This document shows, one piece after another, positions 1 to 22,845 of a stretch of 64,000 nt of DNA; within the stretch, counting starts at the first letter, position 1; every line of letters starts with the position of its first letter. The notes below the pieces were generated by a model that was not told where the DNA came from, ran no database searches, and was given only the letters and a program-made list of their open reading frames with translations. Source of the stretch: Chloroflexota bacterium (GTDB taxonomy: Bacteria > Chloroflexota > UBA11872 > VXOZ01); assembly GCA_965221905.1 (NCBI GenBank), contig OZ244922.1, forward strand, positions 1,280,001 to 1,344,000. The letters run 5' to 3'. Both the position numbers and the translations under genes were made by a program.

Positions 1-310
1 GCTTACGCGCCAGAGTGACGACTTCCTGCGCTAAATCCGCAGGGACAGGCAAATGGAAAGTCGTTTCCTCCGTCACGGGATGACGCACCAGACCTCCCTG
101 GTAGCAAATAAGCGGCACCGTAATATTGAGCTCTTGGGCAAACGGCACCATAGCGGCAAACATCCGACCGCTTGCAAGTGTAACCGTGACCCCTTCCGCC
201 TGGGCGGCAGCGATCGCACTTTTCACCCGTGGCGTCACCGTGAGCCGATGGTCGATGAGTGTACCGTCCAGGTCGATGGCGATGAGCTTATAGTCGGAGC
301 GCAGGCTCAT
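1..310 (-). CDS. Cof-type HAD-IIB family hydrolase (partial, runs off window start; not in ORF track)
   Basis: Manual minus-strand translation from ATG at 310: MSLRSDYKLIAIDLDGTLIDHRLTVTPRVKSAIAAAQAEGVTVTLASGR...ICYQGG. Contains the HAD motif I DLDGT and the ASGR motif. ATGA overlap with the nfo stop. Confidence 0.85.
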   Translation of the reverse strand, partial: MSLRSDYKLIAIDLDGTLIDHRLTVTPRVKSAIAAAQAEGVTVTLASGRMFAAMVPFAQELNITVPLICYQGGLVRHPVTEETTFHLPVPADLAQEVVTLARK

Positions 311-1143
311 ACTAAGAGCCCCCGCACGATGTCCATGTTGGCTTGATCGGGTCCTTTGTCATCAAATCCCGGCACTTCCAGCACGGCCGGAATGCCGGCA
401 AGCGCCCTATGATTGACGATGTAGCGGAACGCTTCCAAGCCGATGTAGCCTTCGCCGATATTCTCATGGCGGTCTTTATGGGAGTCGAAGGGCACTTTTG
501 AGTCGTTTAGGTGGAAGGCCGCTAGGCGATCCAACCCAAGATTCTCATCAATTTCCGCGAGCATAGCGTCGAAGCCCTCGGCGGTTTCCACGTGGTAGCC
601 GGAGGCGAAGGCGTGGGCCGTATCGACGCAGAGCTTTATGCGTTCGTGGTTGCCGCAGGCGCGGAGGATGGTGCCTAATTCCTCGAAGCTCGAGCCGATG
701 TTGCCGCCGGAACCGGCGCTGTTTTCCAATAAGAGCGGCACGGTTTCGGAGGCGGCCAGCGCATCGCTAATTGCGGCCTCGATCCGAGGCAACGCCTGGT
801 CCAGGCCGTCGCCCATGTGACTGCCGACGTGCGTGACTACGCCGGCTGCGTTGAGCAAGTCGCCTGTTTGCAGTTGGAATGTAAGCGTCATCACCGACTT
901 GTCGTAGTTATCCGGCTTGGGCGAGCCGGTGTTGATGAGATACTGCGTGTGGAAGAGAGCCGGCAGCGGCGTCTCCGTTTGGGCGGCAGTATAGGCCGCC
1001 ACGTGCTCTTCCTTGGGCAGCGCGCGCTGCCAACCGCGCGGATTGGAGCTGAAAATCTGCATGCATTCGCACCCCAGGTCTTGTGCCCGGGCAAAAGCGG
1101 TAGCGATGCCGCCAGTGGTGCGCACGTGGGCGCCAAGTTGCAT
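307..1143 (-). CDS. nfo: Endonuclease IV (AP endonuclease)
   Basis: Motifs LGAHV, QIFSSNPRGW, LLENSAG, DTAHAFASG, HLNDSK, DRHENIGEG. Start reassigned to ATG 1143 (MQLGAHV) after an AAGGGA RBS-like sequence. Confidence 0.93.
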   Translation of the reverse strand: MQLGAHVRTTGGIATAFARAQDLGCECMQIFSSNPRGWQRALPKEEHVAAYTAAQTETPLPALFHTQYLINTGSPKPDNYDKSVMTLTFQLQTGDLLNAAGVVTHVGSHMGDGLDQALPRIEAAISDALAASETVPLLLENSAGSGGNIGSSFEELGTILRACGNHERIKLCVDTAHAFASGYHVETAEGFDAMLAEIDENLGLDRLAAFHLNDSKVPFDSHKDRHENIGEGYIGLEAFRYIVNHRALAGIPAVLEVPGFDDKGPDQANMDIVRGLLV

Positions 1144-1491
1144 CGATAGATCCCTTCGTATGCGCTCGTGGAGGGAGACGGCTAGGAGAACGACTGCGAC
1201 TATTATAGCAAAGCAAGCGGTCGCGTTGGTGGTCTTCGCGGGCAACAGCCAGCGCCGATGAGAGACCCACCATGTGCGACAGCCGGTCCTGGGTCTTGCG
1301 CCACGGCAGCGACGGCGTCAATCCTGCGTAGGCTCAATTGTTCTGTATGGCACTCGCGACACTTTGCAGAAAATTTGCAATTGCGGATGGCGTTGGCGCC
1401 TTGCCACTCTAGACGGGAAGAGGGCGAACTGGGGGAGGGGCCGCCAAGGGCATTCGCCTGATGCGCACTACCTTTCCGGTGACCTTTGCAT

Positions 1492-1522
1492 AACTCCGTC
1501 ATTCCGGCGAAAGCCGGAATCC
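1492..1522. repeat. REP-like palindrome, family B (GTCATTCCGGCGaAAGCCGGAATCC)
   Basis: Hairpin ATTCCGGC/GCCGGAAT. A near-identical copy including the AACTCC leader begins at 25485. Confidence 0.8.
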
Positions 1523-1575
1523 AGAGGGGGGGGGGGTGTGGGTAGACAGGGATTACTTGTCGTGAGGCCGTTATT

Positions 1576-1614
1576 CACCCCCATCCCGACCTTCCCTCAT
1601 CAAGGGGGAAGGGG
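1576..1614. repeat. REP-like palindrome (CACCCCCATCCCGACCTTCCCTCATCAAGGGGGAAGGGG)
   Basis: Imperfect hairpin CCTTCCCTC/GGGGGAAGG within the same repeat cluster. Single copy in this window. Confidence 0.5.
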
Positions 1615-1647
1615 TTTCGCAGTGGTCCCCTTTCCGTGAGTGGCAGC

Positions 1648-1688
1648 CCATCCGTTCATGCTTCGACACGCTCAGCACGAACGGATGG
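1648..1688. repeat. REP-like palindrome, family A (CCGTTC...CTTCGACA.GCTCAG.ACGAACGG)
   Basis: Outer arms CCATCCGTTC/GAACGGATGG. Related copies at 21682-22874 (split by IS110), 44854-44888 and 63805-63866. Confidence 0.8.
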
Positions 1689-1806
1689 AATGCTCGTGCC
1701 GAACGGATAGTGTGTTCTTGCCGAGCGGATGGAGTGCTCTCGCCGAACGGATGGTGTGTTCTTGCCGAGCGGATGGAGTGCTCTGGCCAAACGGATGGTG
1801 TGCTCT
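1679..1806. repeat. 22-bp tandem repeat, about 6 units, with alternating 44-bp higher-order pattern
   Basis: Units start at 1679, 1701, 1723, 1745, 1767 and 1789; consensus GA(A/G)CGGATGG(A/T)GTG(C/T)TCT(T/C)GCC. Confidence 0.85.
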
Positions 1807-1995
1807 GAGATCGACCCTCTCCTCACGAGTATCGCTGCGGTGACGCTATAATGTGGGTGAGGCTATAGTCGCCGCCTAGGATCGGCACGCTTGGTATGAA
1901 AGTGCGTGCGCACGGCGGTCCAAATACCAAGTGAGTGCTTGGCGACGGGCGCGGCGACAAGCGAATGCAAGAACGCGAAAGAGAGATGCGGACGC

Positions 1996-4494
1996 ATGCG
2001 GAATATTCTGAGCGGGCTTTTGGGCGGTCGTGATGAGGAGGAGCAATCCGCGATTCGTCCAGTGCATCGCGACGCTGCTGACTCCGGCGGTTTGCTGCAT
2101 GACCTGGGTGGCGGAGTGCTGCTTTATGAGGACGTCTTCGTCCTTGGCAACATCGCCTACGGACGCCGTCAGCCGCCGCTCTCACTCTCCTTAGAGCGCA
2201 GCGCTGAAACGTCCTACAGCGAGATACCCAGCCAGTTTGACGGATGGGATGGAGCACGGAGTTTTGCCGGCGCCGTTCCCCAAGATCACGAGGTGTTTCG
2301 GCATTGCACGGCGAGCATGACGGCGACGCTCAGGCAGATGGCGCACGTGATGCGCAGCGACTCCGCGCCTGCGACGCAGTCGGCGTCTTCGATGAAGTCG
2401 GCTTCTGCGACGAAGTCATCCAACCCCTCTATTCTGCTTACCGGGCCTACCGGCTGTGGCAAAACGACCCTGGCCAAGACCTTCTGCTACCTGGCAAATG
2501 AACCGTGTGTTGAGATTACGTTCAGCGGCGATACCGCGCTCAGCGATTTCTACCAGTCGGTGGAGGTTGTGACCCAAGCCGGGAGCCAGGCGCACAGCAC
2601 TGCGACGCTGCTCGGCCCGGCAGTGGATGCCATGCTCACCGGCAAGAAACTGCTGCTCAACGAAGTAAACATAATTCCCCAAGACCTGCTAAGCGTCTTC
2701 ACACAGGCGCTCGATGCCCGCCAGGTGGTGCTTTCAGGCAGCGAGTGGGGCAATGTGACGGTGCCGGTGCACCCGCAGTTTGGTGTCATTGCCACGGCCA
2801 ATCCCAACTATACCGGCACGCTGGAGATCGGCGTCACGTGGGAGCGACGGTTCGGTCACGGCACCGGGAACGTGGCTATGGACTTCCTGCCGCTGGCAGA
2901 AGAGGCTGAGGCGATTCATCACGAGCTACGGCGCGTAGCCGTTTTGGAGCGTATAGAGGCGATGCCGCCGCTGGAGGCGTGCACGGCAGTTGCAGCGGCA
3001 GCGGCGGAATTGCGAAGCCACCCGGAACTCGGCGGGCTCATGCGTGACCGCGTCTCGACCCGTTCGCTGGTGCACTGGCTCAGCGTGTGCAGCCTTACCG
3101 GTTTTCCCTTGGCCGCGGTTGCGGTGGAGGCCATCCTGACGTTGGCGCCGCCGGAAGCCCGCCAAGAGGCTGCCGAGCTTGTCGAAAAGATGCTGAGCGC
3201 GGTTGCCTGGCCGGCAAGAACGCATCGTCGCGTGAGCGGCGTGCTGCTACCGGAGATTACAGTGCCGGAGGAAAGCGTGGTTGCATTGGGGAGTGTTGCG
3301 CAAACGCCACTGCCTATGTCACATGGGGAGGAGACCGAAAGGCGAACGGGCGGCTTGGAGAACGAAGTGTACCAGCCGCTGGAGAGCGATTCGCCGGGCA
3401 AGCAACCGGCACTCGCGCGTTATGAGTGCACGCTGCCGGACGGCACGCGGTTGCAATTGCAAGAGCCGCTCTACACGTGGGCGGACAACTCGATGGCTCT
3501 GGGACTACGCCTGCACGCCTGGGATGCAAATGGCTTCGAGATTACGGACCCGGTCCGGCTGGAGTCGTTTGAATCGGTACTGGGCGCAGAATTTGGCATC
3601 ACGGTGCCCAGACCGATCGGCAACATACCGTCCGGTGATGTGGCACTCCCGTGTTTTACGCGCTCAAGTTGGTCGGCGCTGCGTCTGCTGGAAGCGGCGC
3701 TTGTGCTTGACCGTCCGGTATACATTAAGGGTCCGCCGGGCAGCGGAAAGTCGGCTCTGGTGCGCACGCTGGCGCGGCTGCGCCAACTTCCGTTGGTAGA
3801 ACTCACGTTTACTGGCGAAACATCCAAGCACGATCTTCTCGTCAGCCGCCGCCTGAGCACGGGAGAGACCCAATGGACGGTGCAAGCATTTCTCGAAGCC
3901 GTCATAAAGGGCTATTTGGTGCTCATAAATGACTATAATCTCGCCTACTCGGACGTTCATTCCTTGTTGAACAGTCTCTTCGACAAGGGTCGGTGCCTAA
4001 CGCTGCCTGACGGGCGAACGGTAACGGCTCACCCGCGTTTTCGGTTGGTGGCAACCGGGCAGCCGGAGGGCCCGGGAGTGAAGCCGCTCAACGAAGGAGT
4101 GGAGAATCGCTTTGGCGCAATCCTCGAGCTGGCATATCCTTCCTCCGGCGAGGAGCTCGCGGTACTCCGCAGCGTTGGGCAGAGTTTGCCGGTTCCGGTT
4201 CTCCGGTCGCTGGTTGATTTCGTCGGTCAGTGCCGGCGCTGGTCGGCAGGTGCGGTGCCCGCAGACTTGGAGCAGGAAGCGATTTGGCAGGATGCCGTCT
4301 CGCCCGAGTTGATTGCCGCGGTAGCCGCGGCCGGCAACTGGAGTACGGCGGAGCTTGTGGGAGTGGTACAGGGCGTGGATGATGCCGGAGTCTTAGTGGA
4401 GCGGTTCCAGGAAGGAGTGCTGTCGGCCGCCACCCCTGCGGCCCGCCGCGTCTTGGAAGCGCTCCTTCTTCAATACAACGTAACATTGGCATAG
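1996..4494 (+). CDS. Tandem (two-domain) AAA+ ATPase, CbbQ/MoxR/dynein-related (AAA_5-like)
   Basis: Two Walker A motifs (GPTGCGKT, GPPGSGKS), atypical Walker B (LLLNEVN, VLINDYN), HPxFxxxAT sensor-1 motifs and RF arginine fingers. Start probably ATG 1996; the ORF track gives 1906. Confidence 0.85.
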   Translation: MRNILSGLLGGRDEEEQSAIRPVHRDAADSGGLLHDLGGGVLLYEDVFVLGNIAYGRRQPPLSLSLERSAETSYSEIPSQFDGWDGARSFAGAVPQDHEVFRHCTASMTATLRQMAHVMRSDSAPATQSASSMKSASATKSSNPSILLTGPTGCGKTTLAKTFCYLANEPCVEITFSGDTALSDFYQSVEVVTQAGSQAHSTATLLGPAVDAMLTGKKLLLNEVNIIPQDLLSVFTQALDARQVVLSGSEWGNVTVPVHPQFGVIATANPNYTGTLEIGVTWERRFGHGTGNVAMDFLPLAEEAEAIHHELRRVAVLERIEAMPPLEACTAVAAAAAELRSHPELGGLMRDRVSTRSLVHWLSVCSLTGFPLAAVAVEAILTLAPPEARQEAAELVEKMLSAVAWPARTHRRVSGVLLPEITVPEESVVALGSVAQTPLPMSHGEETERRTGGLENEVYQPLESDSPGKQPALARYECTLPDGTRLQLQEPLYTWADNSMALGLRLHAWDANGFEITDPVRLESFESVLGAEFGITVPRPIGNIPSGDVALPCFTRSSWSALRLLEAALVLDRPVYIKGPPGSGKSALVRTLARLRQLPLVELTFTGETSKHDLLVSRRLSTGETQWTVQAFLEAVIKGYLVLINDYNLAYSDVHSLLNSLFDKGRCLTLPDGRTVTAHPRFRLVATGQPEGPGVKPLNEGVENRFGAILELAYPSSGEELAVLRSVGQSLPVPVLRSLVDFVGQCRRWSAGAVPADLEQEAIWQDAVSPELIAAVAAAGNWSTAELVGVVQGVDDAGVLVERFQEGVLSAATPAARRVLEALLLQYNVTLA

Positions 4495-4496
4495 GC

Positions 4497-6497
4497 ATGA
4501 CTTCTGCGACTTTGACGAACACAGCAGCTCAGGCTGAAGCGCGCGTGCGCAATACGCGCTATGCGCATGGCGAAATAGTGGCGCTCGCGCGGCTCATTCT
4601 CCGCGATTCACGCCTGAATGTCGTGTCGGGCAGGGAATGGGCATACATAGCACGCGGGCACACGCTAACGTATCCAACGCGGGTGCTGCACACCTGGCCC
4701 GGCACAAGCATCGTTGGCGCTATCTGCCAGCAGATGGGTGAAGCCCAGCACACAGGTGTGATGGGCGAGCGGGCGTTGCAGAGCTTTTCCCGCATCGCCC
4801 CGCTGGCGTTCGACGCCGTCATGCCGTTCGCGCGTTTTGTGAATGAACTGCGCGTAAACCGCATGCATTTGGCGCGATACCCCGGCTCGGCGCGATTCCT
4901 GCGGGCGCTCTATGCCGACAATCCGCAGTGGTCTTCCGGCAGGCGGCGCAGCACACCCCTCAGGGAGCAAGTACAGCAAGGTCTATTGGATCGGTGGCTC
5001 CATGAGGTGTGGCCGAAAAATGCGCGCCCGATGCACATCGGGAGTACGGCCAATCGTTACGTCGACGTCCTTTGGCCCGGCGTGCGGGACGCGCTGCTCC
5101 GAGACTCCATGCCGCAGATGCTGGACATCCTGGCCCGGCGGATGCTGCCCATTCTGCACGACCTCGTGGAAGAGGATGCTCGATTGTCGCAGAGGCGGCC
5201 GGAAGAGGAGCGGCCCGTTCCCGAGGAAGATGCCACTGCCGAATATGACGCCGAGGCCCTCGGGGAATTGCATATTGAGGTGGGCAGCGCCGATGACACG
5301 GAATCGTCGTCCCGTGAAGATGGCGATAGACAGATGAACGAATCTTCAGCGCCCCGATCGGATGTAGAACCCATTCCTGCCTCTCCAGATGATGAAGGCG
5401 GCCCCGCTAAGATAGAGAGCAGCCCGGATGAGCAGGCCGAACTCCGCCGAGATGGCGAAGCGGATTCACGACAGCAACCCAAACTCGAGGGTCCTCCGCG
5501 ACTAATCGACCCAAGCATGTTCAAAGCGCATCCCGGTGCACTCAATCCAATGCCGCGTACAATCGTGCAGGGCTTGGGCGAGCGTCCGGCCGCACCGAAA
5601 ACGGACTATGAGAACTTCGACTATCGTAGTGCGGTACGGCGGCTGGAGCCCGCGATCCTGCGCTCGCTTAACGGTGAAGCGGGGCGGAGGGGCCTCAAGG
5701 AGATCATGATGCGCCGCCGCTTTGGAACGCTTGAGCTGGGCCGGCGACCTCGCCGCCGCCGGGGCGGCGATAGTGGCGAGATCGATACCGATCACGTGGA
5801 GCGCCTGGTTGTTGCACCGGAACAAGCGTTCCTCAAAGGCGTGCGCACACCGCGAGCCGATCATCAAAAGGACTTTGCTGCTATCATCCTCATGGATATC
5901 AGCGGTAGCATGGTAGCCAAGGGGTACTCGACCCGCAAGTTCGACCACACCGTAGACGCCGCCGTGATTTTCGCCGAGATTCATGAACGATTGCGGATTC
6001 CCTATCAGATGATGGCGTTCTCGGAGGAAGTCTGGCGAATGCGCACGTTCGACGAGTGTACTTTCTCAACTCAGGTGGTCGCCAACGAGCGGACCTACAC
6101 GCCTAGGGACCTGAGCAGTGTATTCCGCACCATGTATGAGCAGCCGCACAAGAAGACGGACGATGCCGGAGCGATGCGCCAGGCGGTGCAGGACATGCAA
6201 CCGCATAAGGGATTCAAGACCATTTTGGTCTTGACGGACGGTATTTCGTCTCAACGGCGAAAACTGCGGGAAGTTCTGCTTCAAGTGGAGCGGCGCAATG
6301 GCATGGTTGGTTCCGGGGACGCAATGGGTATTATCGTGTTTGGAATTGGCGTGCCCGGCGATGCGCTAAACGAATCTTACATAGTACAAGCGGAAGGCCG
6401 GTTCTTGCGCTGCCTGCAGACGGTGGTGGTGCCTGACGTGGCGCGGCTGCCCCGTATGATCCAGACGACGATCGAGCGCCGCATTCGCGGTGTTTAA
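4497..6497 (+). CDS. vWA/MIDAS domain protein with acidic disordered linker (CobT/NorD/CbbO-like AAA partner)
   Basis: MIDAS DISGSM...T...VLTDG at the C-terminus, central D/E/P-rich stretch, GEIDTD motif before the vWA domain. Starts 2 bp after the AAA gene. Confidence 0.85.
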   Translation: MTSATLTNTAAQAEARVRNTRYAHGEIVALARLILRDSRLNVVSGREWAYIARGHTLTYPTRVLHTWPGTSIVGAICQQMGEAQHTGVMGERALQSFSRIAPLAFDAVMPFARFVNELRVNRMHLARYPGSARFLRALYADNPQWSSGRRRSTPLREQVQQGLLDRWLHEVWPKNARPMHIGSTANRYVDVLWPGVRDALLRDSMPQMLDILARRMLPILHDLVEEDARLSQRRPEEERPVPEEDATAEYDAEALGELHIEVGSADDTESSSREDGDRQMNESSAPRSDVEPIPASPDDEGGPAKIESSPDEQAELRRDGEADSRQQPKLEGPPRLIDPSMFKAHPGALNPMPRTIVQGLGERPAAPKTDYENFDYRSAVRRLEPAILRSLNGEAGRRGLKEIMMRRRFGTLELGRRPRRRRGGDSGEIDTDHVERLVVAPEQAFLKGVRTPRADHQKDFAAIILMDISGSMVAKGYSTRKFDHTVDAAVIFAEIHERLRIPYQMMAFSEEVWRMRTFDECTFSTQVVANERTYTPRDLSSVFRTMYEQPHKKTDDAGAMRQAVQDMQPHKGFKTILVLTDGISSQRRKLREVLLQVERRNGMVGSGDAMGIIVFGIGVPGDALNESYIVQAEGRFLRCLQTVVVPDVARLPRMIQTTIERRIRGV

Positions 6498-6511
6498 CCA
6501 ACAAGGAGCAC

Positions 6512-7282
6512 GTGGTGAAGTCCAGATCGCAGCGTTCTGACACCGAAAAGCTTCCCTGGGGTCTGCCCGCGGTGATTGTGGTGTGGGTAATTTGGCTCGT
6601 GTTGGCGCACCTAAGCCGGGCGGTCCTTGACGTCTACACAGCGATTTCCCCATTGCGCTACTTGGGCGCCGCGAACATGCCGAATTTGCGCGCCTCATTA
6701 TTTGCCCCCGGCATGCTGGTAGCTGTCGGCCTTTTGGTTCCCGTATTGATTGCGGCCGGTATTGCTTTTCGCATAGTAGCCGCCCGCTATCGGGGCGCCC
6801 CCATGGAGGCGCTTGCGTTCACCCGACAGAACCACGTCTGGGTGCTGGCGGTGGTAGTGCTCTTTGGTGTCTTGCTGACGTTTCTTCTGCAGTTCGCCCT
6901 TGGCTGGTCCAATTACCCGCTGCCGTTTCTCGAACCCAACGCTGGATTCCCCTCGCCTCTCGATCTGGTGCTGTACGCCGTGAGCGTGCCAGTGACGGCT
7001 CTTTTGGCGGGAATACTCGTGTTTGGATTCTGCTATCCCATCTTGGTGGCAGGCTTGGGTAGATGGGTGGGAGGGCTTCTTTGCGCAGTATGCTTTGCCT
7101 TGCCACAACTTGCTATGCAGGGCGTCTATTGGCAACCGGCGGCGGCCTTGCTGGTAATGGGCATCTACCTGACAGCAGTACGGATGCGGACAGAATCGAC
7201 CTATACCGCTACGCTCGGCTATACCGGCTTTTCGATTTACATCGCCCTATCAGCAGTATTGGCAGAACTAGCCATCGCCTAG
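6512..7282 (+). CDS. CPBP (CAAX protease/Abi)-like polytopic membrane protein, catalytic residues absent
   Basis: About 7-8 hydrophobic segments with CPBP-like spacing (FALPQ, GIYL...RMRTES), but the EExxxR, FxxxH and HxxxN motifs are substituted. AAGGAG RBS. Confidence 0.65.
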   Translation: MVKSRSQRSDTEKLPWGLPAVIVVWVIWLVLAHLSRAVLDVYTAISPLRYLGAANMPNLRASLFAPGMLVAVGLLVPVLIAAGIAFRIVAARYRGAPMEALAFTRQNHVWVLAVVVLFGVLLTFLLQFALGWSNYPLPFLEPNAGFPSPLDLVLYAVSVPVTALLAGILVFGFCYPILVAGLGRWVGGLLCAVCFALPQLAMQGVYWQPAAALLVMGIYLTAVRMRTESTYTATLGYTGFSIYIALSAVLAELAIA

Positions 7283-7585
7283 AGCTGCCGGTAGGTTTGC
7301 GCCGGAGCATGCCTACACCGCCAAGCACGGCTACGTTAAGGGCACAAACACCAACACGCCCTGTATGTATTGCAGGGCGTGCCGGCGAGAAGGGCAGTGT
7401 GCCTTTGCCGCAATGCTGGAGGCTAGCAGGCTGAGTCAGAGACGTGCTGCCGGCTTGTAAAGGGATCGCTCAGTTGGCCAGAGCGTCTCCACTTTCGAAT
7501 CAACTTAACGAACTAACACGAAGATTGGTATACCGCAATCATCAAGATCCTTGCGCGAGACCGGTTTCTTGTCCTCGGGGCCGCA

Positions 7586-8008
7586 TCAACTGTCGGTGTC
7601 GCTCCACAGATACCGCCCGGTTACACTCGAGACTAAAACTATAATCACATCAACAAACGCCCAAATGACCTGATTAGCGGTCGACTCGCCCTCTATGCCG
7701 AAGTTCAGAAAGTTGAACCAATTTGAAAAGAACCAGAGAGCCAGCATGACCGTAATGTACGTTGCCAAGTTGACTTCCAGATATTCACGCGTAATCGCCT
7801 CATCCGAACCCCGGCCCAGAGCACGTTTGCGCTGGTAGTTAACGACCAATGCGATCACAATTGCCAGGGCAATCGGCCAATCCAAGATACCCCACACATC
7901 GACGGTACCCAGCGCCTCTCGATAGAAGGAATTGAACACAAAGTGCACCGCCACTACGAGCGCGACGCCAATGAGGAAAACCGACAAGAGCTTCTTGACT
8001 GCTCCCAT
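7586..8008 (-). CDS. Hypothetical membrane protein (about 4 TM)
   Basis: Hydrophobic 140-aa ORF with AAGGAG RBS. Confidence 0.7.
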   Translation of the reverse strand: MGAVKKLLSVFLIGVALVVAVHFVFNSFYREALGTVDVWGILDWPIALAIVIALVVNYQRKRALGRGSDEAITREYLEVNLATYITVMLALWFFSNWFNFLNFGIEGESTANQVIWAFVDVIIVLVSSVTGRYLWSDTDS

Positions 8009-8554
8009 GAGAGTTTCTCCTTCTAACTGTGTGAGATTCTAGCGATTCGTGGGGTATTGTTGCTGATAGCGTGCATATTCATTTGCACATGACCGACGCC
8101 TACAGTGAATTGCGGCAGTGCGGATTGATCGACTGCTTCGTTCAGGCTCCTCTTGCACTAGCCTAACGGCTTCGCGCTTGTTTAGGTCCCGTCTGCCGGC
8201 GTGTAGCGCGCTGTATCGCAGCAATGGAGAGCTTGGGAGAATGTTAGTCAGGGTGTTGTGTGAGGATCGTGTGGTGGGTCGAGCACTCGAGGGAGCACAC
8301 GTGCTGAATCTACAGGCCGACGGGTAGCTTACTTGAGTTAGGATTGCAGGCATTAATCCATTCTCTTACGCTTTCTCTTCGCCGGGCCGTCAGCTCGGTC
8401 ATGCGATGCTGCGCCTCCCTATGTTAGCGCCTAGATTAGGTTTACCTGCAGCCACCTTCTCCTAATCCTTGCTGCCTAGCTACAAAGCTGCACCGGCCCG
8501 AAATCTCTATTGGCACCGGTGCAGTTGCAGGAGGCTGGGATCCTAAAGAGGGAG

Positions 8555-10975
8555 TTAGCAACGTGAGTATCCGCAGACGAGGCACTTCTCGCAGCCTTCT
8601 TCGTAGACGACACCGGCCGCGCCGCAGTCCGGGCAGATCTCGCCGTGCCGCGATTCGCGGCTCGGGCTTGCGGGTTGTGCGCGGGCCAAGCCGAGTTGCA
8701 CCACTGACGCCTCTTCGGTGGCGGCAGCGCCGTTAATGCCGTTCGTGCCTGTGGAAATGTTGTAAATCTCGGCGATCACCTGTGCAATCGCATCGGGTAT
8801 CGAGAGGACGCGGTTGGGGCCGATGCCCATCACGTCCACCGAGCCGATGCCGCGCAAGTGCTTGTGATACTGCTTGATCGGAACGCCGCTCCGCAGACCG
8901 AGCGTGATCGAGCGCGCCAGCGCCTCCAAATATGCTTGGTCTGCCGTACCGGCTTTGCCGAGCGTGAGGAAGATCTCGATGGGGCGGCGATCTTCGCCTT
9001 TACCGGTGGAGTTGATGGTCACGTAGAGGTCGCCGCGCGCCGTGACCTTCTCCACGGTCACGCCTGACACAACGGCCGGTCGCTTACGCGGGTGCATTTC
9101 TACCGGCACCGCCGCGCTGTTAGCCTCTTGTTTGTCCGCGCCTTTGTCAACGGCCTCTTCCTTCTTCTCTTCCACGCGAGAGAGCACCGGAGTGCGTGAG
9201 CCGTCGCGGAAGAAGGTGATACCCTTGCAGCCGAGGTCGTAGGCAAGGGTGTAGAGCTTATCGACGTCGGCTATCTCATAAGAATTCGGCGCGTTGACGG
9301 TTTTCGAAATGCTGGAGTCCGTATATTCCTGGATGACGGCCTGCACGCGCACGTGGTCCTCCGGACGCAGGTCGTTGCTGGAGGCGAAGTAGTCCGGCAC
9401 GGGCTCGCCGTCATGCGCATCTTGCCACTCTTTGAAAAGCGGGTGGTAGAGGATGTGTTCGCCGGTGCGGTCGACGCGCTTCATGGCAAAGTCGAATACC
9501 GGCTCAATGCCGCTTGAAACGCCGGAAAGCAGTGACGTGGTGCCGGTAGGCGCCTGCGTGAGGATTACACCGTTGCGGACGCCATGCGTGGCAATCTGCT
9601 CTTGCAGCGCCGCCGGCAACTGCCGGATGAACGAGCCTTGCATGTACTTTTCACTGTCGAATTGCGGAAAAGGCCCTTTTCCCTTGGCGATCTCCATAGA
9701 CGCGCTGTAGGAAGCATCGCGGATGGTCCGGTAGATACGTTCCACAACGGGCATCGACTTTTCGCTGCCGTAGCGCACCTTCATCTTGATGAGCGCATCG
9801 GCAAGACCCATAGTGCCCAGGCCCGTCCGGCGCGTGCCGTCACGCTGTTGTTGCTTGTTTTCCTCGATGAAGTACGGCGTGGCATCGATGACGTTATCGA
9901 GAAAGCGGATCGCGACCCTTGACGTCTTGGCCAGCAATTCGTAGTCCATCACGCCGTCTTCCACGAAGGCCGAGAGGTTGATGGCTCCGAGGTTGCACAC
10001 GCCCCAAGCGGGCAGCCCTTGCTCGCCGCAAGGGTTCACGCAGCGGATTTTCTCGAAATACCAGGTGTTGGAGCGCTTTTGATAGCGCTCCATGAAGACC
10101 AAGCCGGGCTCTGCCGAGCGCCAGGCGGCTTCGCAAATCTTGGCCCAGATTTCACGCGCCTTTACGGTGCGATGGACTGTGACGGCTTTGCCGCGAGCGC
10201 GCCAAGCGGCCAAATCGCCGTTCCACACCTCGTCGTACTCCGGATCGGTCGTGTCCGGGAAGACCAGGTCCCAGGTGCCGTCTGCCTTAACTGCCTCCAT
10301 GAAAGAGTCGGAAGCGCAGATGGAAAGGTTTGCGTGGTTGATGCGGGAGAGATCGGTCTTGACCGTGATTAACTCTTCGATGTCCGGGTGCCAATCGTCC
10401 AGCATGAGCATGAGCGCGCCGCGGCGCGAGCCGCCTTGCTGAATCACGTCGCCGGTGGCTACCGAGTACAACTCACCCCAGGAGCACGGCCCGCTGGCGG
10501 TACCGTTCACTGATCGAATGTAAGAGCCACGCGGCCGTAGACTGGAAAGATTAATGCCCACGCCGCCACCCCTCGCCATGATCTCCGTCATGACGCTGAG
10601 GTTCTCCAGAATGCCGCCGCGGCTGTCCTGCGGCGAGGGGATCACGTAGCAGTTGTAGAACGTGACCTCATGGCCCGTGCCCGCGCCCGCCAGGATGCGG
10701 CCGCCGGGAACGAACTTGAAGTCCTGCAACGCCCGATAGAATTTTTCTTCCCATGCAATGCGGTTTTCTTCTCCTTCTTCCACGGCGGCTATGCCGCGCG
10801 CGACGCGACGCCACATCTGCTCCGGGTAGTGCTCCAAAGCGGTGCCGGTCTCATCTTTATTGGAGTACCGATCGGCAAAGACCTTCTGCCGGATTCCGTC
10901 GAGCATGGTGCCGGTTTCGGGCTCCGGTACAGGCTGCCCGTTGGTACTTCTGCCGTTGGTATGAATGACTGCCAT
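8555..10975 (-). CDS. nrdJ: Class II adenosylcobalamin-dependent ribonucleotide reductase with C-terminal TSCPD/Zn-ribbon
   Basis: Motifs PGGRIL, NCYV, GGGVG, QQGGSRRGA, NPCGEQ, CNLG, APTGT, SISKTVN, C-terminal CPDC...CLVCGYSRC. Start ATG 10975 after GAGGAG. Confidence 0.95.
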   Translation of the reverse strand: MAVIHTNGRSTNGQPVPEPETGTMLDGIRQKVFADRYSNKDETGTALEHYPEQMWRRVARGIAAVEEGEENRIAWEEKFYRALQDFKFVPGGRILAGAGTGHEVTFYNCYVIPSPQDSRGGILENLSVMTEIMARGGGVGINLSSLRPRGSYIRSVNGTASGPCSWGELYSVATGDVIQQGGSRRGALMLMLDDWHPDIEELITVKTDLSRINHANLSICASDSFMEAVKADGTWDLVFPDTTDPEYDEVWNGDLAAWRARGKAVTVHRTVKAREIWAKICEAAWRSAEPGLVFMERYQKRSNTWYFEKIRCVNPCGEQGLPAWGVCNLGAINLSAFVEDGVMDYELLAKTSRVAIRFLDNVIDATPYFIEENKQQQRDGTRRTGLGTMGLADALIKMKVRYGSEKSMPVVERIYRTIRDASYSASMEIAKGKGPFPQFDSEKYMQGSFIRQLPAALQEQIATHGVRNGVILTQAPTGTTSLLSGVSSGIEPVFDFAMKRVDRTGEHILYHPLFKEWQDAHDGEPVPDYFASSNDLRPEDHVRVQAVIQEYTDSSISKTVNAPNSYEIADVDKLYTLAYDLGCKGITFFRDGSRTPVLSRVEEKKEEAVDKGADKQEANSAAVPVEMHPRKRPAVVSGVTVEKVTARGDLYVTINSTGKGEDRRPIEIFLTLGKAGTADQAYLEALARSITLGLRSGVPIKQYHKHLRGIGSVDVMGIGPNRVLSIPDAIAQVIAEIYNISTGTNGINGAAATEEASVVQLGLARAQPASPSRESRHGEICPDCGAAGVVYEEGCEKCLVCGYSRC

Positions 10976-11413: not shown

Positions 11414-11974
11414 CTAGCTCCGCTTTTGCACCGCCGTAGGGTTCTCCCTATCGAATGTCCATTGCGCCGGGTTGTCGTGGATGTACTGGCGAATCTTTGT
11501 CAGAGACTCTTCGCTGCGCACGACGTGCTCGAAGTAATTCCGTTGCCAGAGGGGTCTGCCGGGAAGCCCATGCGCAGAATTGACCCGTTTCGTACTGACG
11601 GTCTTGAATGCGCCAATCAGACGTCCCAAGGGCTTACGTTTGCTGTCCCACGAGTCTGCTCCGGTAGGGGCGGTTCGCGAACCGCCCCTACGCGCGTCAT
11701 CGGTGATCATAAGGATGCCATGGAGATGGTTCGGCATGACGACAAATTCGTCCAACACCACGTAAGGGTATTGGGTCTCCAGCCATTGCCAGCAATCGGA
11801 CACCAATCGGCCAGTCCTGTTCAGGCACATATTGCCATCCACTATCTCGCCGAACAGACACGCCCGTCCTTGGGCAACCACGGTCACAAAGTATGCGCCC
11901 GCCTGCGAATAGTCGTATCCCTTTAGGCGGATAGAACGCCGACGCTGGCTGTCTGGAGCGTAGGGGCTACTCAT
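11414..11974 (-). CDS. REP-associated tyrosine (HUH/Y1) transposase, RAYT-like (IS200/IS605 superfamily)
   Basis: RRSIRLKGYDYSQAGAYFVT, MPNHLH (HUH), WQRNYFEHVVR, catalytic YIHDNP. Confidence 0.9.
   Translation of the reverse strand: MSSPYAPDSQRRRSIRLKGYDYSQAGAYFVTVVAQGRACLFGEIVDGNMCLNRTGRLVSDCWQWLETQYPYVVLDEFVVMPNHLHGILMITDDARRGGSRTAPTGADSWDSKRKPLGRLIGAFKTVSTKRVNSAHGLPGRPLWQRNYFEHVVRSEESLTKIRQYIHDNPAQWTFDRENPTAVQKRS
11664..11691. repeat. Perfect 28-bp GTAG-type REP palindrome inside the RAYT ORF
   Basis: GTAGGGGCGGTTCG|CGAACCGCCCCTAC, translated in frame as RRGGSRTAPT. Confidence 0.85.
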
Positions 11975-12888: not shown

Positions 12889-13680
12889 TCATAGACCCTC
12901 CGGCGCACGCGACACGGCCATGGGGTTCTCCCTATCGAACTCCCACCGCGCCGGGTTGTCGCTGATGTACTGGCGAATCTTTGTCAGAGACTCTTCGCTG
13001 CGCACGACGTGCTCGAAATAATTCCGCTGCCACAACTTGCCGGAGAATTGCGGCCACCGTAGGGTCTTCACACCCCGCACGTACTCCACGGTCGTCAGAG
13101 ACTTGAATGCCCCAACCACGTCCCCCAATGCGTACCGGCGATCCACTGTAGGGGCAACCCTCGTGGTTGCCCGTGGGTCATTTTCGCTAATCTCCGCGCC
13201 GAGCGGGGCTGATTCCTGGGCCGCCGTAAGGGTAACCCTCGTGGTTGCCCCTGGGTCAATATTCCTGGTTTCACCTTGGGTCAGGGCTGGTTTCTGGTCT
13301 TGCGTAGGGGCAACCCTTGTGGTTTCCCTATGGTCTATTTCCCGGGTTGCCCCGTGGGGCGGGACCGCTTCCTGGGCGCCCACAAGGGGCGCCCCTACCG
13401 GTTGGACAATGCTGATGATGCCGTGGATATGGTTGGGCATCACGATGAACGTGTCCAATGCGATGCCTGGGAAGCGGCCGGGAATCTCTTGCCAAACCCG
13501 CCGGATCATCTCTCCAGCGTCGTTCAACCGCATCTCTGCGCCGACCACGTCACCGAACAGACACGCCCGCCTTTGGGCTACCATGGTCACAAAGTATGCG
13601 CCCACCTGCGAATAGTCGTATCCCCGCAGGCGGATCGACCGGCGACGCCGGCTGTCTGAGGGCGGGTTGAATCGGCTCAC
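12889..13680 (-). CDS. Second RAYT-like HUH transposase with in-frame REP-derived repeat insert
   Basis: RRSIRLRGYDYSQVGAYFVT, MPNHIH, WQRNYFEHVVR, YISDNP, plus an insert of about 75 aa with repeated TTRVAPT. Confidence 0.9.
   Translation of the reverse strand: MSRFNPPSDSRRRRSIRLRGYDYSQVGAYFVTMVAQRRACLFGDVVGAEMRLNDAGEMIRRVWQEIPGRFPGIALDTFIVMPNHIHGIISIVQPVGAPLVGAQEAVPPHGATREIDHRETTRVAPTQDQKPALTQGETRNIDPGATTRVTLTAAQESAPLGAEISENDPRATTRVAPTVDRRYALGDVVGAFKSLTTVEYVRGVKTLRWPQFSGKLWQRNYFEHVVRSEESLTKIRQYISDNPARWEFDRENPMAVSRAPEGL
13148..13398. repeat. Intragenic REP array: three direct GTAGGGGCAACCCTCGTGGTTGCCC-type units at 78-bp period plus one inverted related unit
   Basis: Units start at 13148, 13226 and 13304. 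Inverted GGGCGCCCACAAGGGGCGCCCCTAC at 13374-13398. Confidence 0.85.

Positions 13681-21724: not shown

Positions 21725-22845
<1,121 letters not shown>

Follow-up and report, generated by a model that had tools for sequence, protein, structure and literature searches.

The window analysed here is a stretch of 64,000 nucleotides of Chloroflexota DNA. Two of its adjacent genes, denoted g1 and g2, encode a two-module AAA+ ATPase and an acidic-linker vWA/MIDAS partner; they are best described as a hitherto unrecognised form of MoxR/CobS-type AAA+-vWA motor rather than as a bacterial counterpart of midasin, the ribosome factor of eukaryotes. The pair probably acts as a remodelling motor of the MoxR/CbbQ-NorQ/CobS class in an unusual format. 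The original prediction of an AAA+/vWA motor operon is supported to this extent; its extension to a third gene (g3) and its reading as a split bacterial mini-midasin are not.

Gene organization and conservation of the pair

The locus comprises the following features.

1678 to 1806, no strand assigned: 22-bp tandem repeat (5.9 copies) upstream of g1, a possible operator array and candidate part of the system
1840 to 1869, plus strand: promoter-like GTGACG-18-TATAGT, a consensus match only
1996 to 4494, plus strand: g1, 832-aa ATPase with two AAA_5 modules (Pfam, AF2 model, homologues)
2407 to 2895, plus strand: AAA core of g1 module 1, residues 138-300 (alignment, AF2 model, motif counts)
3691 to 4143, plus strand: AAA core of g1 module 2, residues 566-716 (alignment, AF2 model, motif counts)
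4497 to 6497, plus strand: g2, 666-aa CobT-like vWA/MIDAS partner (family alignment, profiles, model)
4497 to 5201, plus strand: N-domain of g2, residues 1-235, putatively degenerate zincin-like (motif, model, hhalign)
5190 to 5531, plus strand: D/E/P-rich linker of g2, residues 232-345 (composition, model pLDDT about 30)
5694 to 5876, plus strand: conserved basic segment of g2, residues 400-460, 'RRPRxxRxGDxGEID...AFLKG' (many invariant columns)
5874 to 6494, plus strand: vWA domain of g2 (family alignment, profile, model, fold search)
6512 to 7282, plus strand: g3, 256-aa multi-pass membrane protein of the CPBP/Rce1-like fold family, without catalytic motifs (profiles, language model)

According to the ORF list of the window, the three genes are separated by gaps of 2 nt (4495-4496) and 14 nt (6498-6511), which confirms the tight coupling described in the original prediction. 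The listed ORF of g1 spans 1906 to 4494 (+); within its frame, the ATG at 1996 is the start that agrees with the N-termini of homologues ('MRNILSG'). The start of g3 is preceded by AAGGAG. The 22-bp repeat (6 matches, 0.09 expected) forms the same array in locus L002, and 5 related loci have partial cores upstream of their g1. A TATAAT is also present at about 1846, and the regional count of promoter-like matches around 1840 is no higher than in shuffled sequences. An Rfam search of positions 1-9000 returned no riboswitch and no other family.

Among related Chloroflexota loci with DNA downstream, g2 is found directly 3' of g1 in 60 of 61 (56 full copies and 4 partial copies at contig ends); the exception is L051, which has downstream DNA and g1 without g2, while L043 and L061 stop within g1. 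The pair occurs in 63 species-level genomes, and the family appears to be limited to Chloroflexota whose only available genomes are metagenome-assembled. The conserved unit across clades is g1-g2 only. The neighbourhood check across Chloroflexota thus bears out the pair but not the proposed three-gene set, since g3 is present in 14 of the 56 loci with a full g2, all within the window's own clade. The family has no curated name, consistent with the claim that it was undescribed: the NCBIfam equivalogs for NorQ, CobS, GvpN and CobT score far under their cut-offs (for g1, 66.7 bits with GvpN, cut-off 266.8, and 25.4 bits with CobS, cut-off 558.55), and none matches g2. Homologues of g1 carry the source names 'AAA family ATPase' or 'MoxR-like ATPase'.

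The two-module ATPase

As predicted, g1 fuses two AAA_5-type modules. Pfam AAA_5 matches the protein (E = 2.6e-35, 121.9 bits, cut-off 22) in two stretches, approximately residues 146-277 in module 1 and residues 575-706 in module 2. The Walker A motif GxxxxGK[ST] occurs twice per chain in 61/61 copies, here as GPTGCGKTT (2443-2469) in module 1 and GPPGSGKS (3730-3753) in module 2. Neither module conforms to the MoxR-type Walker B hhhhDE. In module 1 the motif reads N222-E223 (2659-2664), with Asn replacing Asp and 'NE' in 61/61 copies; in module 2 it reads N645-D646 (3928-3933), the N-D being shared by the window's clade, and either N-E or N-D is found in 60/61 copies, the last ORF being truncated. 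The aligned positions read D-E in NorQ, CobS and most midasin modules. Module 1 has the sensor-1 residues T-A-N (267-269) as well as R284-R285-F286, whereas module 2 is without a sensor-1 Asn. Because both Walker B motifs carry Asn, and module 2 combines N-D with the loss of the sensor-1 Asn, the ATPase activity of g1, as judged from its motifs, may be weak. The post-sensor-1 loop and Arg segment of module 2, GPGVKPLNEGVENRF (4069-4113), contains the motif GPGVKPLNExVENRF, which is kept in 60/61 copies. Each of the two modules finds its best match in the other (29% identity, E = 4e-16).

The AF2 model of g1 (pLDDT 75.7, pTM 0.77) predicts helix-2 insert strands at residues 186-192/200-206 (module 1) and 616-621/624-629 (module 2), and pre-sensor-1 beta-hairpins at 243-248/252-257 and 667-669/675-677, respectively. 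The models of both g1 and g2 represent monomers and rest on shallow alignments of 23-25 rows. Searched as a whole chain, the g1 model aligns with the motor domains of dyneins in 50/50 of the matches listed (about 810-890 columns, E = 1.8e-18 to 1e-15), which suggests that the two modules lie side by side as adjacent modules of a concatenated ring do. A related precedent is the metagenome protein P0195, in which a two-module unit is repeated three times in near-identical form, giving six modules, with a g2-like N-domain and a vWA behind them.

The vWA/MIDAS partner

The second gene has the acidic linker and the intact MIDAS that had been read from its sequence. The linker contains 32 D/E and 13 P per 114 residues and is disordered in the model. 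The MIDAS is formed by D467-I-S-G-S471 (5895-5909), T554 (6156-6158) and T580-D-G582 (6234-6242), all invariant in 23/23 aligned family members; D[IV]SGS and TDGIS are found in 57/57 g2 copies each, and a C-terminal RIR in 56/57. The vWA domain of the window's g2 lies under the Pfam cut-off (VWA_2, 20.4 bits, cut-off 27), while VWA_2 is matched by 23/23 family members. The basic segment, modelled at low confidence, is a candidate element for engaging the AAA ring or its pore.

The N-domain carries Q78-Q79-x-x-E82 (4728-4742), aligned to the HExxH motif found in distant relatives. The latter have HExxH in 42/49 cases, followed by NxxEDxR[VI][EN]. Throughout the g2 family the second His is replaced by Glu and the downstream Glu by Asn; most copies keep H-E-x-x-E (32/57 by a script count, which is an undercount), and the window's clade has Q-Q-x-x-E in 15/15 copies. 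We infer a zincin fold from the motif and the order of secondary-structure elements, not from a fold match.

Relationship to NorQ/CbbQ and CobS/CobT

Scored as single domains, module 2 is best matched by NorQ (51.8 bits, versus 45.5 for midasin) and module 1 by CbbQ (35.5 bits, versus 29.5 for midasin). The pair shares with NorQ/NorD and CbbQ/CbbO an AAA_5 core with helix-2 insert, a partner consisting of N-domain, long linker and vWA with MIDAS, and conservation at two sites, the post-sensor-1 loop and the C-terminal end of the partner. It differs from them in that each chain holds two AAA modules, not one, that Walker B reads N-E or N-D where theirs is D-E, and that there is no client operon. 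The g2 profile gave no significant direct match to NorD. It is connected by hhalign to A5, a group of HExxH-vWA proteins (probability 100%, E = 5e-46, 550 columns), which in turn matches solved CobT (E = 7.7e-45), the midasin C-terminus (5e-18) and NorD (4e-12); CobT_C is matched in 46/49 members of A5 and by 3/23 members of the g2 family, each of the latter at E of at least 0.05. The best full-length structural matches of the g2 model are mostly phage CobT-like/VWFA proteins (720-820 columns, E = 1.6e-14). We therefore place g2, as a divergent representative, in the CobT-like vWA family, which is often found in phages.

The original prediction had also considered that the pair might fall within a characterised family such as CobS/CobT. 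The CobT-like superfamily does include g2, with CobT's whole layout of N-domain, acidic linker and vWA. As a CobT orthologue it was rejected: there is no NCBIfam CobT match and no cobN or cobalamin (B12) context, true CobT is without HExxH, and g1 is a tandem.

A relationship of this kind raises the alternative that g1-g2 is a chaperone for inserting a metal or cofactor into an unlinked metalloenzyme, the downstream membrane proteins being incidental. The closest characterised relatives (NorQD for cNOR, CbbQO for RuBisCO, CobST for CobN) all do so, and conservation of the pair does not extend to any fixed third gene. Systems of the NorQD/CbbQO/CobST type are, however, usually encoded beside their client; norCB-norQD adjacency is seen in L064 and L065. 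Among the scanned ORFs of the window there are no RuBisCO, nor, cob, cox or gas-vesicle genes, in line with the predicted lack of a RuBisCO, nor or cob client nearby. Together with the missing riboswitch and the low equivalog scores given above, this makes an insertion chaperone unlikely compared with the remodelling motor.

Genes downstream of the pair

The product of g3 was proposed to be a dead CPBP-like membrane protein, and this description held. Its score with Pfam PF02517 (Rce1-like) is 20.6 bits (cut-off 22.4), 7 of the 11 clade members match at E of at most 1, and in a language-model search 30/30 matches are Rce1-like (score 0.96), which supports a distant relationship to CPBP/Rce1-like proteins. 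The catalytic motifs of CPBP proteins are EExxxR, FxxxH and HxxxN/D; in the matched region these occur in 0/11 g3 clade members. The family has no conserved His anywhere, and one member is without any His. Four acidic residues (D40, E141, D151 and E252) are invariant. By a hand reading of the sequence they are probably located outside the cytoplasmic loops, so that binding by the MIDAS is not favoured.

In a different clade of 17 loci an unrelated membrane protein is encoded directly 3' of g2, the remaining loci having neither. A same-strand multi-pass membrane protein thus follows g2 in 14 + 17 loci, drawn from two non-homologous families (hhalign probability 0.1%). In a cluster of 13 loci, the gene directly downstream of g2 encodes an S1-domain ribosomal-protein-like product in 4/4 members tested.

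Processing, ribosomal and phage-related alternatives

The peptidase-like features of g2 might point to ATP-dependent processing or degradation, with the N-domain as an active metallopeptidase into which the AAA+ ring would feed its substrates. The HExxH motif in distant relatives and the H-E-x-x-E of most g2 copies speak for such a role, as do fused giant proteins that additionally carry Peptidase_M48. There are precedents as well, for which a role of this kind has been proposed. Iyer et al. (2021, PMC7824862) describe a MoxR-vWA pair in group 2.2 jumbo phages whose vWA is fused to an N-terminal metallopeptidase. This resembles g1-g2 in having an N-terminal HExxH-type domain, then a vWA, and an AAA+ partner; in g2, however, the motif has decayed (to HExxE across the family and QQxxE in the window), and g1-g2 is cellular and chromosomal. 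Likewise, Zhang and Aravind (2012, PMC3495828) treat a MoxR-vWA-YebA operon, in which YebA is a membrane transglutaminase-like peptidase and action next to the membrane was proposed. The three-gene layout of AAA+, vWA and membrane-embedded peptidase-family protein is the same, whereas g3 belongs to the CPBP instead of the TGL family, is without catalytic residues and is clade-specific. With the second His and the downstream Glu replaced across the g2 family, Q-Q-x-x-E in the window's clade, a zincin fold that rests on motif and secondary-structure order, and a g3 that is likewise catalytically dead, we regard proteolytic processing as distinctly improbable.

The proposal of a split mini-midasin, taken as a protein that is specifically related or ancestral to Rea1/midasin and possibly acts on ribosomes, has several likenesses in its favour. 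Several AAA_5 modules share one chain, a D/E-rich segment precedes a MIDAS, the quoted module 2 string NLAYSDVHSLLNSLFDKGRCLTLPDGRTVTAHPRFRLVATGQPEGPGVKPLNEGVENRF is present in the g1 translation, and the top match of the g2 vWA alone in a fold search is the Rea1/MDN1 MIDAS (6e-7; NorD 1.5e-5). The S1-domain genes downstream of g2 could be read in the same direction. Midasin is also the top full-sequence match of g1 in the PDB (E = 1.3e-47), a score that is high because it is summed over six modules. The midasin likeness of g1 is not specific: the per-module scores favour NorQ/CbbQ. In the best tree, both g1 modules are on the NorQ/CobS side (SH-aLRT 93), whereas the fused metagenome proteins P0142, P0180 and P0195 group with midasin. 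Modules 1 and 2 together form one side of a branch, with a weak support of 70. The tree gives no resolved midasin affinity; the AU test, on an alignment of only 146 columns, does not reject a grouping of module 2 with midasin (p = 0.47). AAA_lid_7 (PF17867), which midasins have, is absent among the best 25 of 48 families for g1 and from the precomputed family lists of 110 homologues. Midasin has six modules, g1 two, and the g1 ATPase and the g2 MIDAS are on separate chains; no fused close relative of g1-g2 was found among longer proteins, which is weak evidence. As g2 is also nearer to CobT than to midasin, we give a mini-midasin very little credence.

Finally, a phage-derived or defence module, such as a domesticated virion-assembly chaperone pair or a vWA-MoxR conflict system, is brought to mind by the phage look-alikes of g2, by plasmid and phage-plasmid AAA_5 genes near VWA genes and by the vWA-MoxR conflict systems that Kaur (2020) describes in Chloroflexi, but is highly implausible given the chromosomal housekeeping context with even GC content, the conservation of the pair across species-level genomes, no match of the pair to phage genomes (tblastn), PADLOC results limited to P-loop fragments for g1 with nothing for g2 or g3, and no VMAP, effector or STAND component adjacent to g1-g2.

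Proposed mechanism

For a remodelling motor, the conserved hot spots, namely the module 2 post-sensor-1 loop and the RIR of g2, fit the template of NorQD and CobST. NorQD has been described as having a finger in the pore, a C-terminus that rests on the post-sensor-1 loop, a linker that stretches, and a membrane client carrying acidic residues; for CobST, the N-domain has been described as seated on the small AAA domain, the linker as long and the vWA as lying at the pore. By analogy, three g1 chains would form a six-module ring, with the g2 N-domain anchored on a g1 lid domain, the vWA on the concave ring face, the conserved segment in the pore and the invariant R-I-R tail on the module 2 post-sensor-1 loop. 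The linker would be twisted or stretched by ATP turnover, for the most part probably that of module 1, where the catalytic Glu and the sensor-1 Asn are both retained, and the MIDAS would hold an acidic residue of a client. No conserved gene beside the pair encodes this client. The window's clade would have gained the catalytically dead CPBP protein, most likely as a membrane tether, adaptor or client, while its g2 would have lost the last traces of the HExxH-type site. With both sites dead, the system here would bind and remodel without cleaving. A full picture of g1 as a 'half-way' motor, with three two-module chains in a pseudo-hexamer, a catalytic module 1, a degenerate docking module 2 with its invariant post-sensor-1 loop, Asn Walker B motifs, a pseudo-peptidase vWA adaptor and lineage-specific membrane proteins, is offered as a speculative and rather unlikely proposal.

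Implications for AAA+-vWA motors

Structural understanding of AAA+-vWA motors such as NorQD, CbbQO, CobST, RavA-ViaA and midasin is only now emerging, and to our knowledge the well-studied bacterial ones are all homohexamers of single-module chains. Since the g1-g2 family is unnamed and apparently confined to Chloroflexota known from metagenome-assembled genomes, it marks an annotation gap. Its conserved two-module form would be a small, tractable system for how concatenated rings split labour, as the modules have diverged: Walker B carries Asn, module 2 has lost sensor 1, and the docking loop is invariant. In the partner, a peptidase-type domain is undergoing progressive inactivation, and the third gene, swapped among lineages, shows how such motors get re-targeted. 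If the 'half-way' motor is true, the family would represent an independent bacterial route to concatenated asymmetric rings, which are otherwise known from dynein and midasin.

Gene organization and conservation

The system proper is a pair of genes, g1 and g2, coding for a two-module AAA_5 ATPase and its vWA/MIDAS partner with an acidic linker, respectively. The original prediction had described a three-gene system that includes g3, the gene of a CPBP-like membrane protein. Its observation of three coupled genes is confirmed: all are plus-strand ORFs, the gaps are 2 nt (g1-g2) and 14 nt (g2-g3), and AAGGAG precedes the start of g3. For g1, the ATG at 1996 is consistent with the N-termini of the homologues.

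Features of the operon and its surroundings (window coordinates)
1678-1806, intergenic, upstream of g1: tandem repeat, 22 bp x 5.9 (44 bp x 2.9), consensus CGAACGGATGGAGTGCTCTTGC
1906/1996-4494, plus strand: g1, 832 aa
4497-6497, plus strand: g2, 666 aa
6512-7282, plus strand: g3, 256 aa
7586-8008 and 8039-8353, minus strand: two small ORFs of no family, convergent to g3
11414-11974, 12889-13680 and 21725-22660, all minus strand: transposase-related ORFs (two IS200-like Y1, one IS110-family)

The three-gene arrangement fails outside one clade. Related loci number 63, all in Chloroflexota genomes and nearly all labelled as metagenome-assembled. In 56 loci g2 directly follows g1 and in four more it is partial at a contig end; two loci end inside g1, and a single locus (L051) has downstream DNA yet lacks g2 in any frame. 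The third gene is found in 14 loci, the very ones whose g2 has a QQxxE motif. Clustering of all flanking ORFs returned nothing besides g1 and g2 that is common across clades, and the three-gene form is therefore clade-specific. In the g3-bearing clade (loci L001-L014, L021 and the window) three changes coincide: HExxE to QQxxE at residues 78-82 of g2, N-E to N-D in the Walker B of module 2 (residues 645-646 of g1), and the gain of the CPBP-like gene. We note that this is one lineage and a single event, not replicated co-variation. The open-access literature searched holds no account of a tandem AAA_5 protein paired with a CobT-like partner in Chloroflexota; databases name the g1 family no more precisely than 'AAA family ATPase' or 'MoxR-like ATPase'.

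The upstream neighbour of the operon is a divergent xylose-isomerase-like TIM-barrel gene; downstream are the two small minus-strand ORFs and a class II ribonucleotide reductase. The ORF at 7586-8008 encodes 140 aa with about three hydrophobic segments and has positional counterparts in 13 loci altogether, mostly of the window's clade. The transposase-related ORFs, of which the two IS200-like ones are partial C-terminal matches only, lie at most 15 kb downstream of the operon. The GC content is even over operon and flanks (0.59-0.63), and the rest of the 64-kb window carries ordinary chromosomal genes, among them those for topoisomerase I, DprA, dihydroxy-acid dehydratase and ABC transporters. 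RuBisCO, nor, cob, cox and gas-vesicle genes were all absent from the ORFs scanned in the 64-kb window, which bears out the predicted lack of a RuBisCO, nor or cob client nearby. An Rfam scan of window positions 1-9000 matched no family, hence no cobalamin riboswitch was found there. A PADLOC search for defence systems gave nothing meaningful, tblastn of g2 against phage genomes gave no match, and a scan for promoters and terminators performed no better than on shuffled sequence. The 22-bp repeat array sits just before a promoter-like site upstream of g1 and is unique within the window (6 matches versus 0.09 expected). Locus L002 carries the same array, and three to four 'RARCGGATGG' cores are located upstream of g1 in L001, L004, L008, L009 and L014; the array may be an operator array.

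Domain architecture of the ATPase

Pfam AAA_5 matches g1 in two stretches (E 2.6e-35). In the AlphaFold2 model (pLDDT 75.7, pTM 0.77) a small N-terminal beta-domain is predicted to be followed by module 1 (M1, approximately residues 145-295) and its lid (300-412), then by a second small beta-domain (472-509), module 2 (M2, approximately 556-711) and the M2 lid (717-826). In both modules the model shows beta-hairpins of the kind expected for helix-2 and pre-sensor-1 inserts. All 50 hits listed by Foldseek against the PDB are dynein motor domains, aligned over approximately 810-890 columns (E 1.8e-18 to 1e-15, query TM 0.38-0.44). The model thus arranges the two modules as adjacent units of a concatenated ring would be.

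The Walker A motif is intact twice per chain in 61 of 61 copies. Family-wide, both modules have Asn in place of the Walker B Asp: M1 reads N-E in 61/61 copies, M2 reads N-E or N-D in 60 (the remaining ORF is truncated), and N-D is confined to the window's clade, apart from L051. The aligned positions are D-E in NorQ, CobS and most midasin modules, and E-E or E-D in midasin AAA1 and in the fused giant proteins described below. The Asn-type Walker B is not unique to g1, as a plasmid gene of Allochromatium vinosum also has N-E. The latter (pALVIN02, L068:2821-3771) encodes a single-module AAA_5 ATPase ('LILNE') and lies in a phage-like context with recombinase/exonuclease genes, with a DUF3150 and a VWA gene nearby. 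M1 retains the sensor-1 T-A-N and R-R-F, and M2 is without the sensor-1 Asn. The most conserved segment of g1, GPGVKPLNExVENRF, is located in M2 (60/61 copies) and spans the post-sensor-1 loop and the Arg-finger region of the model.

A short N-terminal helix ('MRNILSGLLG', g1 residues 1-12, window 1996-2031; comparable starts have the form 'M..[IL]L/R..L') occurs in roughly half of the family members aligned and is missing from the rest. It could be an amphipathic membrane-binding helix.

Relationship to midasin

The locus had been read as encoding a split bacterial mini-midasin. This reading holds in part as an analogy and is not supported as a specific relationship. The best full-sequence PDB match of g1 is indeed midasin (E 1.3e-47), with a score that is summed over the midasin modules. 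Compared domain by domain, the best single-module protein scores higher: M2 reaches 51.8 bits with NorQ, 45.5 with the best midasin domain and 42.4 with CbbQ, and M1 reaches 35.5 bits with CbbQ and 29.5 with the best midasin domain. M2 thus appears midasin-like only in the sense in which any AAA_5 domain is. The only matches in a search for longer or fused relatives of g1 were midasin-like proteins of eukaryotes and a single 'MoxR-like' fragment.

A tree of 85 AAA cores (146 columns) was built from both modules of 25 g1 proteins, 15 eukaryotic midasin modules, 13 modules of fused metagenome proteins, two NorQ, CobS, three plasmid AAA_5 genes and P0299. M1 and M2 are each monophyletic (SH-aLRT 99 and 98), and both fall on the NorQ/CobS side of a split with a support of 93, under the 95 mark; the best tree unites the two at a support of only 70. 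An AU test did not reject a grouping of M2 with midasin (p 0.47), and the deep branches of this 146-column phylogeny could not be resolved. A specific midasin affinity of the g1 modules is therefore neither shown nor excluded by tree and AU test. M1 and M2 share 29% identity over 160 residues (E 4e-16), and the simplest reading of the sequences is that the two modules arose by internal duplication in a bacterial NorQ/CbbQ/CobS-like lineage.

The 'midasin-like' prokaryote-type proteins of this data set are not g1 but fused giants found among the matches of the g2 profile. These combine AAA_5 modules, AAA_lid_7 (the midasin AAA lid), a g2-like N-domain and a vWA domain in one chain, and their modules cluster with eukaryotic midasin modules in the tree. 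Two of them (P0142 and P0180) contain two AAA_5 modules, HEAT repeats, the N-domain and the vWA; others add Peptidase_M48. A metagenomic protein of 4471 aa (P0195, not from the window) has six AAA_5 modules, namely three near-identical copies of a two-module unit, as well as TPR repeats, a g2-like N-domain and a vWA. The fused giants show that a two-module unit can serve as building block of a six-module ring.

A CobT-like adaptor with a degenerate peptidase-type site

The model of g2 (pLDDT 69.9) has a confident N-domain (residues 1-235), in which beta-strands at 41-60 precede helices, and a confident vWA domain (460-666). Residues 237-352 between them are disordered and rich in D, E and P (32 D/E and 13 P in 114 residues). 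The MIDAS residues DxSGS, T and TDG are invariant in the family, and VWA_2 is matched by 23 of 23 members. Sequence and profile searches of g2 directly against solved structures returned nothing significant, hence the link to CobT required an intermediate group. When 1.84 billion representatives were searched exhaustively with the g2 profile, 507 hits at E<=1e-3 were obtained, of which 25 at E<=1e-30 constitute the family proper; around it lies a wide halo of proteins of about 450-740 aa that match the N-domain and vWA of g2. An alignment of 49 halo proteins (A5) contains Pfam CobT_C in 46 and Pfam CobT in four members, with a weak match to the CobT equivalog model in 32. By hhalign, g2 aligns with A5 over 550 columns (probability 100%, E 5e-46), and the A5 profile in turn matches the solved structures of CobT (E 7.7e-45), the midasin C-terminus (5e-18) and NorD (4e-12). 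Foldseek agrees: in a search of predicted structures from viruses, phage proteins named 'CobT' and 'VWFA domain' align with the g2 model over 720-820 columns, with E values from 1.6e-14 to about 1e-10. Against the PDB the model finds vWA domains only, the Rea1/MDN1 MIDAS first (6e-7) and NorD at 1.5e-5, with integrin I-domains giving higher TM. We conclude that g2 belongs to the CobT-like adaptor superfamily as a divergent member. With no NCBIfam hit and no cob context, it is no orthologue of CobT; membership in CobS/CobT, raised with the original prediction, applies to g2 at the level of the superfamily.

The A5 proteins carry HExxH (42 of 49), with NxxEDxR[VI][EN] approximately 30 residues later. 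At the aligned positions the g2 family has H-E-x-x-E and N-D-x-R-V-N. The count of 32 HExxE motifs among 57 copies is too low, as five copies went unscored for technical reasons; H[QL]xxE occurs in five copies and Q-Q-x-x-E in the 15 copies of the window's clade. True CobT is without HExxH. From the spacing of the motifs and the order of secondary structure we infer a zincin fold for the N-domain, which, judged by its sequence, appears to carry a decaying peptidase-type site. Iyer 2021 (PMC7824862) describes a MoxR-vWA pair of jumbo phages whose vWA protein bears a metallopeptidase at its N-terminus.

Genes downstream of the pair

The third gene is real and conserved, with 68-97% identity over 14 loci. 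A word-indexed homologue search recovered the close clade only (27 clusters at >=65% identity). The protein has about six hydrophobic segments by a crude hydropathy count, scores just under the Pfam Rce1-like cut-off, and has exclusively Rce1-like language-model neighbours (30/30); g3 is a distant CPBP/Rce1-like relative. Its profile matched nothing among solved structures, and it has none of what we take to be the CPBP catalytic motifs, nor a conserved His. A precedent for its position is the MoxR-vWA-YebA operon, whose third gene encodes a membrane peptidase (Zhang and Aravind 2012).

A second clade (17 loci, a subset of L023-L063) has another membrane protein of 284-329 aa in the place of g3, for example at L025:12089-12955. 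It has 3-6 hydrophobic segments, mostly 5-6, by the same kind of crude count, and a conserved cytoplasmic N-terminus ('GRPEDPxHTQ', 'RYYFYRSYPT'). There is no Pfam match and no atlas lead (best score 0.76), and hhalign indicates no homology to g3. A cluster of 13 loci has a gene downstream of g2 that encodes S1 domains in all four members tested (4/4); the gene after it, tested in one locus, is ClpC-like, and gaps of 120-200 bp suggest a separate unit. Most remaining loci have opposite-strand genes after g2, and two end at the contig edge.

Proposed mechanism

A MoxR-class AAA+ protein with a vWA partner is an established theme, and the combination of acidic linker and MIDAS is also described for chelatase subunits and midasin; MoxR is considered the nearest prokaryotic relative of the dynein and midasin modules (Kaur 2020; Zhang and Aravind 2012). 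As described for NorQD and CobST, the N-domain of the adaptor sits on the small AAA domain and is joined by a long unresolved linker to the vWA, a finger of which reaches into the pore where the helix-2 inserts lie; the very C-terminus of the adaptor binds the post-sensor-1 loop in NorQD. ATP-driven rotation is described as stretching the linker while the MIDAS or the linker holds the client, which for NorQD is membrane-bound and has acidic surface residues.

Domain content, motifs and gene linkage are observed for the g1-g2 pair; the mechanism is inferred throughout, by analogy to the working of NorQD and CobST, from which we propose a three-chain assembly. Three g1 chains would form a pseudo-hexamer in which M1 would be the main hydrolytic site and M2 would act mainly as a docking and regulatory site. 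The client of this machine would be an unlinked protein or, for two of the clades, one embedded in the membrane.
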